From IMG/VR virus record IMGVR_UViG_2548877009_000017, positions 1 to 34,896 of that record: DNA of 34,896 nt, one strand, 5' to 3'. A program made the position numbers and the translations under genes. Source of the DNA: a virus (taxonomy: Duplodnaviria > Heunggongvirae > Uroviricota > Caudoviricetes). The notes under the pieces were generated by a model. That model ran no database searches, was not told the origin of the DNA, and worked only from the letters and a program-made list of their open reading frames with translations. This document shows, one piece after another, positions 26,902 to 34,406 of the stretch (its first letter is position 1; each line of letters begins with the position of its first letter).

Positions 26902-27174
26902 CTACCTGCCTTGACGAAAGACCTTAAGAACATCGTTAAACTGACTTACGGATATGTCTTCTTTGAGAAGCTTTTCCAGAAATGCGTTTGGAATGAACGT
27001 ATATCCCTCCTCTTTTGGTAGAGACGGGAGCAACGCCCTCGCCTCAGCCTTCAGAAGCTCAGTTCTGGCAACTTTCACAAAAGAGATTTGAGTTCTTTCA
27101 TCAATGGAACGAAGGAAGCGCAAACGCTTAGCTTCTTTGTGTGTATCAGGTGGATTAAAGCCTTTGTTTCGCAT
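26902..27174 (-). CDS. Hypothetical protein between cII and the initiator gene
   Basis: 90-aa ORF from ATG 27174 preceded by GAGGTAA; lambda has no gene at this position. Confidence 0.5.
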   Translation of the reverse strand: MRNKGFNPPDTHKEAKRLRFLRSIDERTQISFVKVARTELLKAEARALLPSLPKEEGYTFIPNAFLEKLLKEDISVSQFNDVLKVFRQGR

Positions 27175-27181
27175 ATAATTA

Positions 27182-27259
27182 CCTCGTTGGATGTTGTTAA
27201 AATTCCATTTGTATTTGATCAGAACGCTCGGTTGCCGCCGGGCGTTTTTTATTGGTGAG
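27182..27259 (+). ncRNA. oop: oop antisense RNA overlapping the 3' end of cII
   Basis: 3' portion ...tttgatcagaacgctcggttgccgccgggcgttttttatt matches remembered lambda oop RNA including its terminator hairpin and U-run; antisense to cII stop region; 5' end approximate. Confidence 0.6.
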
Positions 27260-27490
27260 AATCGAAGCAACTTGTCGTGCCAATCGAGCCATGTCGTCGT
27301 CGACAACACCCCATTCAAGAACAGCAAGCAGCATTGAGAACTTTGGAATCCAGTCCCTCTTCCACCTGCTGATCTGCGACTTATCAACGCCCACAGCTTC
27401 CGCTGTCTTCTCAGTTCCAAGCATTGCGATTTTGTTAAGCAACGCACTCTCGATTCTTAGAGCCTCGTTGCGTTTGTTTGCACGAACCAT
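27197..27490 (-). CDS. cII: Transcriptional activator CII
   Basis: 97 aa MVRANKRNEALRIESALLNKIAMLGTEKTAEAVGVDKSQISRWKRDW..., essentially identical to lambda CII. Confidence 0.95.
   Translation of the reverse strand: MVRANKRNEALRIESALLNKIAMLGTEKTAEAVGVDKSQISRWKRDWIPKFSMLLAVLEWGVVDDDMARLARQVASILTNKKRPAATERSDQIQMEF
27464..27481 (+). promoter_or_regulatory. pRE-type CII-activated promoter element (TTGC-N6-TTGC)
   Basis: TTGCGTTTGTTTGC at 27468-27481 on plus strand overlapping the cII 5' coding end, oriented toward cI, as in lambda pRE. Confidence 0.6.
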
Positions 27491-27548
27491 ATGTAAGTAT
27501 TTCCTTAACTAATAAGAAGTTATGCGCATCAACTTATGCGCGTTGTAT

Positions 27549-27592
27549 TCCCGCATTTCGGCGGGAATGATGACCATGACTGTTAAAGAGCG
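27549..27592 (-). promoter_or_regulatory. Candidate nutR (boxA plus boxB hairpin) between cro and cII
   Basis: On minus strand CGCTCTTTAA (boxA-like, 27584-27592) followed by hairpin CCCGC-cgaaat-GCGGG (27550-27565). Confidence 0.5.
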
Positions 27593-27598
27593 GTGTTA

Positions 27599-27793
27599 CT
27601 ATTTGTTTTTCTTGTTGCTTGGGAAAGGACGAACTTCCTCTCCAATCACACTGCCATCAGGCTTTACCGTAACCATAATGTTACGACCTGCCAGAATGGC
27701 CTTGCTGATAGCGCACTGGATTACACCAAAGTCACTGGCTGCTTTAGCCTGTCCATGGATTTTGGCGTAATCGGCAAGTGTCATTCGAATCAT
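27599..27793 (-). CDS. cro: Cro repressor (lambda Cro fold family)
   Basis: [62 protein letters not shown] parallels lambda Cro; ATG 27793 preceded by GGAGAG. Confidence 0.8.
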
Positions 27794-27822
27794 ATGCACT
27801 CTCCGTTATTAACCATGAACAA

Positions 27823-27851
27823 AGAATACTACAGGTATTCAAAGCAATCAA
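27823..27851 (-). promoter_or_regulatory. Candidate pR promoter
   Basis: Minus strand TTGATT (-35) - 17 nt - TATTCT (-10), overlapping the two OR palindromes, about 30 nt upstream of cro. Confidence 0.45.
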
Positions 27852-27865
27852 TACTCAGGGTATTT
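27824..27865. promoter_or_regulatory. Two candidate OR operator palindromes (AATAC-N5-GTATT type)
   Basis: GAATACtacagGTATTC (27824-27840) and CAATACtcaggGTATTT (27849-27865) in the cro-cI divergent intergenic region. Confidence 0.5.
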
Positions 27866-27899
27866 TTAGTTTAAGTACCTTAGCTATTAGAATTAAGCT

Positions 27900-28616
27900 A
27901 TGGAAAATAAAAAATCACTGACGACAGAACAGCTGGAAGACGCTAAGCGGCTTAAGGCTTTGTATGAGTCAAAAAAGAAAGAATTGGGAATAACCCAATA
28001 CTCAATCGCTGATGAACTGGGTATCACCCAAGGAGCGGTAGGGCATTATCTTAATGGCAGAAACGCGCTAAACGTTGAGGTTGCATCTGGTTTTGCACGA
28101 TTGTTGCAAGTCTCAATTGCTGATTTTAGCCAGTCAATTGCTGCCAAGGTTGCAGAACAGGCAGAAAGCCTTAAGAGCGATGCCAACGTAAGGTATGCAG
28201 GGGAATACAGAGCAGGAAAGAGGTATCCGGTGTTAAGCAGTATCCAGGCTGGCTCGTGGTGTGAAGCATGCGAACCATACACCATTAAAGACATAGATGT
28301 TTGGCTTGAGTCTGACGCGCATATTCAAGGTAATGCGTTCTGGCTTAAAGTGGAAGGTGATTCAATGACGGCACCGGTTGGGTTAAGCATTCCAGAGGGA
28401 ACATTCGTTCTTTTCGATACCGGAAGGGAGGCGATCAACGGCAGCTTGGTCATAGCAAAACTTTCTGACTCTAACGAAGCAACATTCAAGAAGCTGATAA
28501 TCGACGGCGGAAATAAATACCTCAAGGGACTTAACCCTGCATGGCCTCTCGTGCCAATCAATGGAAACTGCAAGATTATAGGCGTTGCAATTGAGACAAA
28601 ACTAAGGCTGGTTTGA
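27900..28616 (+). CDS. cI: CI repressor, lambda cI family (HTH N-domain plus LexA/S24-like autocleavage domain)
   Basis: MENKKSLTTEQLEDAKRLKALYESKKKELGITQ parallels lambda CI; C-terminal GDSM and KKL catalytic motifs; recognition-helix region differs from lambda; no SD upstream and TAGAAT -10 about 7 nt before the ATG suggests a leaderless pRM transcript. Confidence 0.9.
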   Translation: MENKKSLTTEQLEDAKRLKALYESKKKELGITQYSIADELGITQGAVGHYLNGRNALNVEVASGFARLLQVSIADFSQSIAAKVAEQAESLKSDANVRYAGEYRAGKRYPVLSSIQAGSWCEACEPYTIKDIDVWLESDAHIQGNAFWLKVEGDSMTAPVGLSIPEGTFVLFDTGREAINGSLVIAKLSDSNEATFKKLIIDGGNKYLKGLNPAWPLVPINGNCKIIGVAIETKLRLV

Positions 28617-28633
28617 TCACGCAAGGGGCGCTT

Positions 28634-29002
28634 ATGGTTGGAACCGCTATAGCAAGCTTTTTTGGGATGTTGGCAATCTCGACAATTTACGGCTTAGCGC
28701 ATGCTTTTATTGCGAAATCTCTATCAGAAAAAATAAGCCAGGCTTGGGCGCATAGATCAGCTCGTTTCATGATTCTAGTGATCATAGCAATACAAGGGAT
28801 ATCTGCATTTATCCTCTATGGTTCAAGCTTATACCTGTTGTATAAAGGCGCGACATTTACGCCTTACACCAGTGATTACGGAACTCTATACGATGGTAGT
28901 GAAGACATCTATATGGCTTGGATCGTTTTTGGTTTATCTATGGCCGTGTCTGTTGTAGCAGACATCATTAAGGTAATTCTCGTCTTAACCTTCGCTGACT
29001 AA
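28634..29002 (+). CDS. Small integral membrane protein of unknown function, co-oriented with and immediately downstream of cI
   Basis: 122-aa ORF from ATG 28634 preceded by AAGGGG; three to four predicted TM segments; occupies the position of lambda rexAB. Confidence 0.55.
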   Translation: MVGTAIASFFGMLAISTIYGLAHAFIAKSLSEKISQAWAHRSARFMILVIIAIQGISAFILYGSSLYLLYKGATFTPYTSDYGTLYDGSEDIYMAWIVFGLSMAVSVVADIIKVILVLTFAD

Positions 29003-29087
29003 CCTATAATCCCGGCAGCAATAGCTATCGGGATCCACTTCACATATCCCGCATAAAAAGCACTGAACAAGCAGACACCGAAAAAAT

Positions 29088-29174
29088 AAATATCCTTTGT
29101 ATTCATTTGCTTATCATTATTTCACCAAAAATAAATACCTTGGGTATTTACACAATAAAATACCTACCGTATTC
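29088..29174. promoter_or_regulatory. Candidate OL operators (three AATAC-N5-GTATT palindromes)
   Basis: AAATATcctttGTATTC (29088-29104), AAATACcttggGTATTT (29133-29149), AAATACctaccGTATTC (29158-29174). Confidence 0.5.
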
Positions 29175-29175
29175 T
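29147..29175 (+). promoter_or_regulatory. Candidate pL promoter
   Basis: TTTACA (-35, 29147-29152) - 17 nt - TATTCT (-10, 29170-29175), overlapping the last two OL palindromes. Confidence 0.45.
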
Positions 29176-29576
29176 TTAGCCATCAGCAGGACGCTGGAAG
29201 CCAAACGGAACAGCTTGGCAGGCTCTTTAACATTGATGGGATTGTCCCGCCGAAATGCGGGAACCAAAGAGTAGTTGGCTTTGGGGTGACGTGAAGTGCA
29301 GCTGCACGACGGCAACCGGAAGATAAGCACCCGGCGCGTCACCGCCAAAGTCAATTCCATAGGCGTTATGCAGCCGCCACCATATTCAAGAAAGCTGCAC
29401 AAGAGGTAGGAGGATTTATGTGAATACTTACATTCAATTGAGAGATTAATTAAATAGAACTGATCGAGCAGAGTCCATAAAGGCTCATAAATGCTCTTCC
29501 ATCCCCGTCTAATTGGCGGGGAAGGAAACCACTTTGTAATAAAAAAAATTCCAAAGTTGTTTCATCGGAGGTCAAC

Positions 29577-29876
29577 ATGACAGTGGTCATTACATATCTG
29601 GCTGACGATAACGCCAGAAATCGCCGCAGAGCACGCAGACAGGCTCAACGTGAACAGGCAATGCAAGAGCAGCGACTGGCGCGAAAAATTGCGCTAAAGC
29701 TCTCTGGTTGCGTCAGAGCAGATAAAGCAGCATCACTCGGAAGCCTTCGCTGCAAGAAGGCAGAAGAAGTCGAGCGTAAACAGAACCGTATTTACTACCG
29801 CAAGCCACGCAGTGAAATGGGTGTGACTTGTGTTGGTCGCCAGAAAATGAAATTAGGCAGCAAACCACTTATTTGA
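29577..29876 (+). CDS. N-like antitermination protein
   Basis: 99 aa with N-terminal arginine-rich motif DNARNRRRARRQAQREQ; first gene downstream of OL/pL; GGAGG before ATG. Confidence 0.55.
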   Translation: MTVVITYLADDNARNRRRARRQAQREQAMQEQRLARKIALKLSGCVRADKAASLGSLRCKKAEEVERKQNRIYYRKPRSEMGVTCVGRQKMKLGSKPLI

Positions 29877-29884
29877 GGTGATAT

Positions 29885-30355
29885 ATGACAAAATCATGGA
29901 GCGTACCTTTTCCTGAATCAGAAACTGAACATGATGGAATGCCTGTTTTCTGGAGATTCCAAGCGACAGTTGAAGAAGATGGAATCAAAATATTCGCACT
30001 TCAATATATAGCTTTTCATCAGACAGAGCATTATGCATGGTTGGTTCCTGCGCATTGGATTGTTAATTTTAAACCAGCACCAAATCAGTGGTTACAGGAA
30101 TGGAAACAAAGGAGAAATAGATATGCAATTAAGAAAGTAGCAAAAAATGCAGAAAGATCTTTTGCATTCCCGACGAAGAAACTTGCCATTGAAAGTTTAT
30201 TGCGCCGGAAGAAATACCATTTGATGAGAATCAAACAAGATTTGGCTGTTGTATCAACTCTTGTTGATGGGATGAAGAATATTGATACATCAACACCAGG
30301 TATTGAATATAACTTTGGACACAACCAAGAAACAGAAAACTGGGTGTTTTATTAG
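29885..30355 (+). CDS. Hypothetical protein, AT-rich moron-like gene
   Basis: 156-aa soluble protein with no recognised motifs; visibly lower GC than neighbours; GAGGTGA before ATG. Confidence 0.55.
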   Translation: MTKSWSVPFPESETEHDGMPVFWRFQATVEEDGIKIFALQYIAFHQTEHYAWLVPAHWIVNFKPAPNQWLQEWKQRRNRYAIKKVAKNAERSFAFPTKKLAIESLLRRKKYHLMRIKQDLAVVSTLVDGMKNIDTSTPGIEYNFGHNQETENWVFY

Positions 30356-30459
30356 TACGAATAAGCACTGTGTATTCATTCCAACGAGTGAATACACGGA
30401 GCAATGTCGCTCGTAACTAAACAGGAGCCGACTTGTTCTGATTATTGGAAATCTTCTTT

Positions 30460-30485
30460 GCCCTCCAGTGTGAGGGCTTTTTTAT
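30460..30485 (+). terminator. Intrinsic terminator downstream of the AT-rich ORF
   Basis: GCCCTC-cagtgt-GAGGGC hairpin followed by TTTTTTAT; a second 9-bp hairpin gtgtattca/tgaatacac lies at 30369-30396. Confidence 0.55.
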
Positions 30486-30549
30486 ATGCATACCAATAAC
30501 GCTTCACTCGAGGCGTTTTCGTTATGCAATCAAACAGAAGGAGCATCCT

Positions 30550-30720
30550 ATGCAACAGTTCGCTATTGCAGGGGCGGCATCGGTTCGCCCTTTCAACCCG
30601 ATTTTATCGGTACAGCATTCACGAAAAAACATTTTAACCGGAGCAGACTTTAAACAACCAAGAATGAAAAGCTTGCTCGAAAAGCTTTGGGATATTTTGA
30701 AACAACAAGGCCGTCCATGA
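30550..30720 (+). CDS. cIII: CIII-like protein
   Basis: 56 aa MQQFAIAGAAS...LLEKLWDILKQQGRP parallels lambda CIII (MQYAIAGW...LIDILNQPG); AAGGAG before ATG. Confidence 0.6.
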   Translation: MQQFAIAGAASVRPFNPILSVQHSRKNILTGADFKQPRMKSLLEKLWDILKQQGRP

Positions 30721-30875
30721 GTTTTACGGATAACTTGTCAGACGAAGAATTCATTCGTCAGATAAAAGAATTAATCGGTAACGAAGGAGATATTCATGTC
30801 ACTTGCAACCACAGTGAAGGAGAGCAAGTTACAGAGACGCATGTACACGCAGAAAGCTCTCTGGTATCGCCATAA
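30717..30875 (+). CDS. Hypothetical small acidic protein
   Basis: 52-aa ORF with ATGA overlap onto cIII-like stop. Confidence 0.4.
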   Translation: MSFTDNLSDEEFIRQIKELIGNEGDIHVTCNHSEGEQVTETHVHAESSLVSP

Positions 30876-30976
30876 TGGTGACCGCGAAGGAATGCGGGTA
30901 TGCCTTAATTTGTCCCGAGTCGAAGTATTAAATCAGCGTTATTTCCTTGGGCCGTGTCCATTCTGAGAGCAATCAT

Positions 30977-31582
30977 ATGAGCAAAGAATTTTACGCAAGA
31001 CTGGCAGCTATTCAGGAGAATCTGAACGCGCCAAAGAATCAGTACAACTCATTCGGCAAATATAAATACAGAAGCTGCGAAGATATTCTTGAAGGCGTTA
31101 AGCCGTTACTGAACGGTCTGTTTTTATCAATCAGCGATGAAGTTGTGTTGATTGGTGATCGGTATTACGTGAAAGCCACGGCAACTATTACCGATGGCGA
31201 AAACAGTCATACGGCAACCGCTCTTGCACGAGAGGAAGAAAGCAAGAAAGGAATGGATTCTGCACAAGTTACGGGAGCTACAAGCTCTTATGCACGCAAG
31301 TATTGCCTCAATGGTTTGTTCGGCATTGATGATGCGAAAGATGCAGATACAGACGAGCATAAACATCAGCAGAACGCAGCAGCAAAGCAATCAAAACCAT
31401 CACTTACACCTGAACAGGTTCTAAAAGCATTCACTGACGCAGCAATGCAGAAAAACACCGTAGAAGAGCTTAAACAGGCGTTCGCCAAAGCGTGGAAGAT
31501 GCTCGAAGGGACGCCGGAGCAGCACAAAGCGCAGGACGTTTACAACATCAGACGAGACGAATTAGAAGGGGCAACTGCTTAA
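30977..31582 (+). CDS. erf: Erf single-strand annealing recombinase
   Basis: MSKEFYARLAAIQENLNAPKNQYNSFGKYKYRSCEDILEGVKPLL... closely parallels P22 Erf. Confidence 0.85.
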   Translation: MSKEFYARLAAIQENLNAPKNQYNSFGKYKYRSCEDILEGVKPLLNGLFLSISDEVVLIGDRYYVKATATITDGENSHTATALAREEESKKGMDSAQVTGATSSYARKYCLNGLFGIDDAKDADTDEHKHQQNAAAKQSKPSLTPEQVLKAFTDAAMQKNTVEELKQAFAKAWKMLEGTPEQHKAQDVYNIRRDELEGATA

Positions 31583-31965
31583 TGGCACATTCGATTACAG
31601 TAAGACTAAACAAACCCGCAAGAGAGTTTCAGGGCGGGGAAAATATCGGATTCAACATCCGTGCTGGCGTTCAGTATTACGATCGCCAGACAAAAAAGAA
31701 AGAATGGACAAACTACAGCGCCGTTGTATTTGCCAAGCCGGGAGCGCAAGCGGATTACTATCGTAGCGTTCTGGTTGAAGGAGGCATTGTAGAAATTACC
31801 GGAGAAAACATCAGGGTTGATGTTTATCAGGGGCAAAATGGTCAATCAATCACTCTTGAATTACTGAATGCAAAGATTGGATTTGCAACTTCAGGAAACA
31901 GCCAACAGCAGCAAAGTAGCAATCATCAAAATAATCCTGAATACGACGATTCCATCCCATTCTGA
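31582..31965 (+). CDS. Single-stranded DNA-binding protein (short SSB)
   Basis: 127 aa with OB-fold-like core and canonical acidic C-terminal tail ...PEYDDSIPF; TAATG overlap with erf stop. Confidence 0.7.
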   Translation: MAHSITVRLNKPAREFQGGENIGFNIRAGVQYYDRQTKKKEWTNYSAVVFAKPGAQADYYRSVLVEGGIVEITGENIRVDVYQGQNGQSITLELLNAKIGFATSGNSQQQQSSNHQNNPEYDDSIPF

Positions 31966-31988
31966 TTTAGAAAAATAAGGATTTAATT

Positions 31989-32285
31989 ATGCCAGCGCCT
32001 TTGTATGGTGCGGATGACCCGCGCCGCTGTTCCGGCAATTCCGTATCGGAGGTGCTGGATAAATTCAGAAAAAACTACGATCGAATAATGTCTCTACCGC
32101 AGGAAACGAAAGAGGAAAAGGAATTTCGCCACTGTATATGGCTTGCAGAGAAAGAAGAACGCGAGCGAATTTACCAGACATCAATCCGACCATTCCGCAA
32201 AGCCACATATACCCACTTCCCTGAATATATCGACCCGCGCCTGCGTAATTACCGCTCACGCTATGGCGCTATCAGTAATGACTGA
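31989..32285 (+). CDS. Hypothetical protein (in the position of P22 abc2)
   Basis: 98-aa ORF with AAGGA before ATG. Confidence 0.45.
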   Translation: MPAPLYGADDPRRCSGNSVSEVLDKFRKNYDRIMSLPQETKEEKEFRHCIWLAEKEERERIYQTSIRPFRKATYTHFPEYIDPRLRNYRSRYGAISND

Positions 32286-33872: not shown

Positions 33873-34406
33873 ATGAGCGCTATAACCAAAGAACGTATCA
33901 AATTATTCATTAAAAATCCGCTTGATAACGGACTTACTCGTGGCGAACAAATGGAACTGGCACGGATTGCGCTGGCATCGCTGGAAGCAGAGCCTGTAAG
34001 CCAAACTTACAACTTGCCAGAATTAATCGAAGGCATGGAAGTTTCCATTGATGTAAGCACTTGTGATGCTGATTTAGGTAATCGCTATTTCGGCACCGTC
34101 ACCGAGGCGTTAGAACTTGATACAGCCAAGAATGGTTACATCCTCCTGGTTCAGGACGCAGAGCCAAACTTCGATGTAAATGGCAACTCTCCGGTAACTC
34201 CGGATGGTTGGATAAGCTGTAGTGAGCGAATGCCGAAAGGGTATGCTGATGTGTTAGTGACCGACGGAGAGCATGTCGAGGTTAAATGGTGGGATGAATC
34301 TGGGTATTGGAATAGTTGGACGGAACTTAACTCAGATATCTTTGCCGATGAAATAACTCACTGGATGCCGCTACCAGAACCGCCGCAGGAGGTTAACCGT
34401 GGCTAA
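33873..34406 (+). CDS. DUF551-type protein
   Basis: C-terminal ITHWMPLPEPP motif typical of DUF551 domain; 177 aa. Confidence 0.55.
   Translation: MSAITKERIKLFIKNPLDNGLTRGEQMELARIALASLEAEPVSQTYNLPELIEGMEVSIDVSTCDADLGNRYFGTVTEALELDTAKNGYILLVQDAEPNFDVNGNSPVTPDGWISCSERMPKGYADVLVTDGEHVEVKWWDESGYWNSWTELNSDIFADEITHWMPLPEPPQEVNRG

Follow-up and report, generated by a model that had tools for sequence, protein, structure and literature searches.

An HK97 gp45-family gene in a mosaic slot upstream of the PreS/tL2a element of a P22-like Escherichia coli prophage

The DNA analyzed here, henceforth termed the window, is a stretch of 34,896 nucleotides (IMG/VR record IMGVR_UViG_2548877009_000017, Caudoviricetes). 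Profile matches show that it encodes a tailspike with a P22 head-binding domain, Erf, and Abc2, which marks it as a P22-like prophage, and among complete E. coli genomes the 601-bp segment under study (29885–30485) has a match of 100% identity in a prophage of E. coli ATCC 11775. The early-left operon lies on the + strand. It opens with a cI-like repressor gene (27900–28616) and a 129-aa membrane open reading frame (ORF, 28613–29002), and continues with an N-like antitermination gene encoding 99 aa (29577–29876) that matches PHROG 271, “anti-termination protein N-like”, at E 4.8e-37; its Pfam N_peptide score of 20.2 bits is under the Pfam cut-off. Then follows a 156-aa ORF (29885–30355, with ATG at 29885 and stop codon at 30353–30355), preceded by a GAGG Shine-Dalgarno sequence and starting 8 nt past the N-like stop. 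Its downstream neighbor is a cIII gene of 56 aa (30550–30720; PHROG 550, E 1e-22), after which come a kil-like gene, small ORFs, and erf (30977–31582). An earlier note made from the sequence had located the ORF between N and cIII, and the two profile matches bear this out. Three RNA features, also on the + strand, fill the interval between the ORF and cIII: a strong 14-bp hairpin (30368–30399), a homologue of the PreS/LPR1 small RNA whose 3′ end is the terminator tL2a (30398–30485), and a second terminator-like hairpin (30498–30517).

Two neighboring features of this operon deserve mention. A boxA-like TGCTCTTC followed by a CCCCG...CGGGG hairpin was seen by eye at ca. 29490–29525 on the + strand, ca. 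55–85 nt before the N start, and is a probable nutL site. The reading frame of a predicted membrane protein, the 129-aa ORF at 28613–29002 (+), overlaps with the stop codon of the cI-like repressor and matches PHROG 6534 (labeled unknown function) at E 2e-78. It occupies the position held by rexAB in lambda and is a candidate for a prophage-expressed exclusion or defense function.

The 156-aa ORF is a near-identical copy of a catalogued, functionally uncharacterized gene family that includes HK97 gene 45 and 933W L0079. PHROG 1636, likewise labeled unknown function, matches the protein over its full length (positions 1–156 of 156, E 1.1e-111), and tblastn gives 98.7% identity to HK97 gp45 (AAF31125) and 99.4% to 933W L0079 (NP_049479). 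The proteins align, both relatives are also 156 aa long, and the window copy differs from them by one or two residues; in HK97 and 933W, the position after N and the downstream terminator are both as in the window. The full-length profile match and the position downstream of N establish membership in the PHROG 1636 family, and the position after N also holds for homologues at 83% and 71% amino acid identity. The ORF is therefore not an unrecognized novelty. Neither it nor the RNA element behind it is new, as both can be found in public records and a function has been published for the RNA element. The ORF family is carried by 83 phage records, mostly of Shiga-toxin phages, and by 563 of 5,426 complete E. 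coli genomes, where a genome was counted if it matched at least 80% of the 601-bp segment. The exact 156-aa protein occurs on at least 999 contigs, each time named a hypothetical or prophage protein, and a literature search for functional studies of HK97 gp45, L0079, NP_049479, or the PHROG 1636 family found none.

The ORF stands out from its surroundings by base composition. Its AT-richness, pointed out in the earlier note, is upheld by calculation: GC content is 36.7% as opposed to 46.8% for the window (4th percentile of 471-bp windows) and GC3 is 29.3%, which makes it the second most AT-rich of 39 genes (z = −2.3 for GC and for GC3). The other 11 early-left genes range from 42.1 to 50.7% in GC and from 39.8 to 50.5% in GC3, and the ORF falls outside both ranges; it is compositionally foreign to its neighbors. 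The note had named two outcomes that would speak against its reading, a composition like that of the neighbors and confident homology to a known core early protein. Neither was obtained, since the composition is distinguishable and profile and structure searches returned no confident homology of that kind. A family-wide tendency to AT-richness was ruled out, because diverged homologues have GC3 values of 0.37–0.49. The property thus belongs to the E. coli allele and not to the family.

Downstream of the ORF, the first hairpin has a 14-bp stem with one G-U pair (30368–30381 / 30386–30399) and a CAAC loop, and folds with a dG of −18.8 kcal/mol (z = −6.3, 0 of 200 shuffles as stable). The hairpin had been noticed before; it is real, and only the size given to it, a 9-bp stem at 30369–30396, needs revision. 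An intrinsic terminator reported at 30460–30485 was read correctly. It consists of GCCCTC-CAGTGT-GAGGGC at 30460–30477, a 6-bp stem with 5 G-C pairs, followed by TTTTTT, and the HK97 record marks the same site as a putative terminator. The two structures do not bracket the ORF, as had been claimed, but both lie downstream of it, and a scan of the + strand from 28500 to 30460, which covers the predicted pL region, found no terminator-like hairpin.

These structures belong to a known element. From 30365 to 30482, the window is base-for-base identical to lambda, Sf6, and two E. coli prophages with other upstream genes, and the first hairpin recurs unchanged in lambda, in Sf6, and in E. coli prophages without the ORF. 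In blastn, query positions 10–133 match lambda 33921–34046, between ral and ea10, at 97.6%. The block is present in 327 phage records, lambda included. The Sf6 record annotates it as “bsq4; boundary sequence” and “terminator, homology to phage lambda; tL2A”, and in HK620, as in Sf6, it is annotated as the lambdoid boundary sequence bsq4. For lambda, Silverman et al. (bioRxiv 10.1101/2024.10.31.621285) report that the ea10–ral region encodes the Hfq-dependent small RNA LPR1, renamed PreS, which is ca. 88 nt long, ends at tL2a, and is processed to ca. 68 nt. PreS is made during the lytic cycle, stimulates translation of the host gene dnaN, and assists replication of the phage DNA. By its identity to lambda and its GC-rich stem with poly-U run, the Sf6 annotation, and the published LPR1 position, the segment 30365–30485 is, as judged from sequence, the PreS/LPR1 small RNA with tL2a. 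The hairpins once described as bracketing the ORF are accordingly to be annotated as PreS/tL2a. Given the identity to lambda, the window PreS would be expected to bind Hfq, to be expressed in the lytic cycle, and to activate dnaN. Its 5′ end is placed at ca. 30398, at the foot of the first hairpin, because the reported length of ca. 88 nt counted back from the U-run leads to this position. The window differs from lambda in the bases just past the stem (GATTTTTTAT in lambda, TTTTTTATAT in the window) and in the upstream gene, which is ral in lambda and the 156-aa ORF in the window. A search of Rfam 15 over 27000–32000 found no family; PreS thus appears to be absent from that release.

PreS/tL2a is a backbone element that is independent of the ORF. 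The 601-bp segment finds a match in 2,238 of 5,426 complete E. coli genomes, yet only 563 of these contain the ORF. Sampled partial matches cover only the last ca. 120 nt of the segment, and the PreS block occurs without the ORF in ca. 1,700 E. coli genomes. Overall, PreS/tL2a is found in ca. 41% of complete E. coli genomes, many Shiga-toxin prophages among them, i.e., in about four times as many as the ORF. The hairpins are consequently not features of this particular cassette, as had been supposed, but part of a backbone that is shared with lambda and mostly occurs without the ORF. The second terminator-like hairpin at 30498–30517 has a different distribution. It combines an 8-bp stem with a weak T-run (dG −9.9 kcal/mol, z −3.8), is located beyond the conserved block ca. 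33 nt before cIII, and is shared by HK97 and E. coli YP3 but not by 933W or PA28. It is specific to phages in which cIII comes directly next, is missing where ea10 or gp17 follows PreS, and may be part of the cIII leader.

Comparison of the locus across prophages, as had been proposed, reveals the ORF as a mosaic accessory cassette in the N-to-tL2a slot of a P22-like E. coli prophage. Near-identity among the window, HK97, 933W, and PA28 extends from ca. 29823 to the terminator stem, so that the last ca. 60 nt of the N-like gene travel with the ORF in one conserved block. Right past the stem they split: cIII follows directly in the window, whereas 933W and PA28 continue with ea10 or gp17. In a survey of 80 IMG/VR loci with an ORF copy of at least 99% identity, the upstream 400-nt flanks fell into at least 14 clusters and the downstream 300-nt flanks into at least 8. 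That the slot holds variable cargo, an assertion of the earlier note, is supported by its unrelated occupants elsewhere. Lambda carries sieB-orf28-ral and Sf6 carries gp36-ral-gp34 in this slot, with the same mosaic and optional character as the 156-aa ORF and no sequence relationship to it. Lambda Ral (66 aa) and the annotated lambda SieB (184 aa) cannot be aligned to the 156-aa soluble basic protein, and Sf6 gp34 and the slot ORF of an O157 prophage, an unrelated ORF of 83 aa, were ruled out as homologues by comparison. Strain YP3 has a reverse-oriented 164-aa ORF in the same slot, and phage phi367 holds ral and the 156-aa ORF together. The protein would be dispensable cargo and not core machinery, because most lambdoid phages do not have the gene.

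In one IMG/VR locus (L039, UViG_2563366924_000001), the sequence before the ORF is the left boundary of the bsq4/PreS block (…AATAAACACTGCACTG) in place of the N 3′ end, and before this boundary lies the terminator that follows a diverged homologue in another locus (L104). This layout suggests, at the sequence level, that the cassette was inserted by recombination inside the boundary sequence itself. In phage PA28 (L005), a short ORF at 2232–2369, annotated as “Nun-like transcription termination factor”, is situated just before the gp45-like gene. The sequence immediately before the gp45-like gene aligns with the 3′ end of an N gene of the window type, so this short ORF, which lies downstream of PA28's own N, is probably what remains of an N gene that moved with the cassette.

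The PreS block is retained in 71 of the 80 surveyed loci, and it begins 10 nt past the ORF stop in 69 of these 71 and 49 nt past it in the other two. This nearly fixed spacing favors the idea that the region encodes no functional protein and serves only as a 5′ precursor or leader of PreS. Several observations effectively refute it. Relative to the HK97 copy, the ORF shows a pS of 0.099 and a pN of 0.005, giving a dN/dS of 0.05, and in comparisons with homologues at 63–83% identity, synonymous sites have reached saturation but pN stays within 0.10–0.25. An alignment of 23 full-length homologues, which cover Escherichia, Pectobacterium, Brenneria, Cronobacter, Rosenbergiella, and other enterobacterial genera, has 40 invariant columns. 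Protein homologues down to ca. 20% identity occur in unrelated phages without PreS, PreS in turn is found in the ca. 1,700 genomes without the ORF, and the AlphaFold model of the protein is very confident (see below). The ORF is a genuine protein-coding gene under strong purifying selection.

The position of this gene bears on when it is expressed. It starts 8 nt past the N stop and lies upstream of tL2a, the first intrinsic terminator on the predicted pL transcript. For this reason, the gene is probably read from pL together with N in the first, N-independent burst of transcription, with Rho-dependent termination between N and the ORF as a possibility that the sequence allows. The mRNA of the gene would end in, or be processed into, PreS. 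Two diverged lambdoid prophages, whose homologues share 83% and 71% amino acid identity with the ORF, retain the order of cI, an N-like gene, and the homologue 2–7 nt later. PreS is absent there, and an unrelated GC-rich intrinsic terminator begins at the stop codon of the homologue. The persistence of this layout of N, gp45-like gene, and terminator despite an exchanged terminator suggests that immediate-early expression is selected for, with the protein being made ahead of antitermination.

In many cases, more distant homologues occupy the first or second position in an early operon or small island, as in Salmonella phage NX263 and its relatives, a Vibrio phage, and several metagenomic phages; others are placed among small early genes, and the gene neighborhoods of distant homologues show no constant partner. 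In NX263-like Salmonella phages and metagenomic phages (L016–L018, L020), a homologue of 63–66% identity is the first gene of a small + strand island surrounded by structural genes on the − strand, and in the NX263-like phages a ParB-like HTH protein comes next. This context is quite different from the lambdoid context of the 156-aa ORF.

A profile search over 1.8 billion representative proteins returned 87 matches and delineated a divergent family of 130–160 aa with the motif K-x-V-x-K...R-F-A-F-x-T-K-x-x-A...R-K...L-x-H-L-K. Reciprocal tblastn from a distant member (P0048) leads back to HK97 gp45, and two apparent domain fusions among the matches (P0056 and P0080) were discarded as repetitive false positives. 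In an alignment of 61 distant relatives, near-invariance is limited to G33, T47, K87, and A101, and a catalytic-looking set of residues is absent. Scans of the 156-aa protein and the 61 relatives against Pfam, NCBIfam, and PADLOC yielded no matching family or consistent result, the best PADLOC match among the 61 members having an E value of 0.0012. A resemblance of the R-F-A-F-x-T-K-x-x-A motif to AP2 or integrase arm-type DNA-binding domains was followed up and is unsupported by profile or fold comparison.

With a deepened alignment, AlphaFold2 models the protein at a pLDDT of 96 and a pTM of 0.83. The predicted structure consists of a long β-hairpin (19–30, 33–46), a third strand (50–55), two short helices, a short strand (83–86), a 33-residue helix (98–130), and an ordered C-terminal tail. 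The 156-aa protein is thus predicted to be a compact α/β protein with a basic center. Its pI is 9.27 (21 K+R vs. 17 D+E), residues 71–120 carry a net charge of +12, and both termini are acidic. With a GRAVY of −0.57 and no hydrophobic segment, it is soluble. Foldseek searches of BFVD retrieved 13 matches at E < 1e-3, all uncharacterized phage proteins, from phages of Erwinia, Achromobacter, Delftia, Rhizobium, Sinorhizobium, Tenacibaculum, and Cellulophaga, several of which we presume to be virulent. A profile search of PDB sequences gave nothing under E 0.25, and PDB structures contained no structural match to the predicted fold. A fold that is predicted very confidently and still lacks a counterpart among solved structures points to an apparently new fold in a phage-wide family.

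The charge distribution leads to a tentative proposal for how the protein works. It may be a non-enzyme that acts by binding, because its pI is 9.3, residues 71–120 have a net charge of +12, no catalytic-looking residues are present, and no enzyme family matches. The binding surface would be a conserved basic one formed by the short strand and the first half of the 33-residue helix, with K84, K87, R91, R107, K109, and R115 as its basic residues. The protein would bind a nucleic acid or a host factor involved in nucleic acid handling and would thereby help the start of lytic growth. The same basic patch could equally bind an acidic protein. Overall, the explanation we favor, with moderate confidence, is that the ORF is a known gp45-family cassette that encodes a probably immediate-early accessory protein that may act by binding.

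The location of the gene in a slot where lambda and Sf6 hold ral also recalls a more specific role, raised by the earlier note as an anti-restriction gene: an inhibitor of restriction or other defenses that is expressed earliest and neutralizes host immunity by binding. Such a role requires immediate-early expression, which is probable here, and would suit an ORF that is patchy, mosaic, and compositionally foreign, with a fold confined to phage proteins in BFVD. In several genomes, relatives of the protein also lie near Lar, Ral, or DNA methyltransferases, an association that is anecdotal. Direct comparisons provided no positive evidence for an anti-restriction role. hhalign of the family profile with lambda Ral gave a probability of 0.13%, in addition to the lack of a Pfam match; the corresponding values were 0.67% for lambda SieB, for which the hydrophilic character of the protein also argues against a membrane protein of this type, 0.73% for the P22 gp17-like protein of PA28, and 0.09% for a Lar_restr_allev protein. 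Moreover, the co-occurrence of ral and the ORF in phi367 indicates that the gene is no simple ral substitute, and the protein does not appear in one large phage accessory-gene screen, of which the text and 16 supplementary files were searched. Ocr and ArdA are strongly acidic DNA mimics. T7 Ocr and ArdA-type proteins resemble the 156-aa protein in concept, as promoter-proximal, earliest-expressed phage accessory genes, with the early timing in our case deduced from gene order. They differ from it in being acidic and in architecture, and the basic pI and the charge of the central segment rule out membership in the DNA-mimic class. We consider a dedicated anti-defense inhibitor rather unlikely.

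A protein made by the prophage that shields the lysogen from other phages, in the manner of SieB or Rex, is a further alternative. It draws on sieB being in the same slot in lambda and on some distant phages that carry the homologue alone, in opposite orientation among structural genes, which is a typical moron arrangement. Expression from the prophage is difficult to reconcile with the locus, where the ORF is tightly joined to N on the repressed pL transcript and no sigma-70-like promoter was found between pL and the ORF; the sole + strand site in 28500–31200 is at 29147–29175. In addition, the protein is soluble and has neither a hydrophobic segment nor SieB homology, PADLOC defense models are unmatched, and its structural relatives occur in phages of diverse hosts, several presumably virulent. 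We regard an exclusion function as improbable.

Returning to the preferred reading of an early binding protein, the phage-wide spread of the gp45-like family and its promoter-proximal tendency make it a reasonable target for studies of early host takeover or counter-defense. A bolder version, which we would not expect to hold although it deserves consideration, is that the gp45 family constitutes a structurally new class of earliest-expressed proteins in temperate and virulent phages of many hosts, with an undescribed takeover or anti-immunity mechanism. In lambdoid phages, the gp45-like protein would then form a three-part immediate-early package with N and PreS.

At the opposite end of the window, a + strand ORF at 1–987 that reaches the window edge is the most AT-rich gene of all (GC 29.8%, GC3 24.9%). 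Its product belongs to the Acyl_transf_3 family (Pfam E 2.8e-28), it adjoins the P22-like tailspike gene at 1045–2991 (GC 38%), and it looks like a lysogenic-conversion moron of the O-antigen acetyltransferase type.
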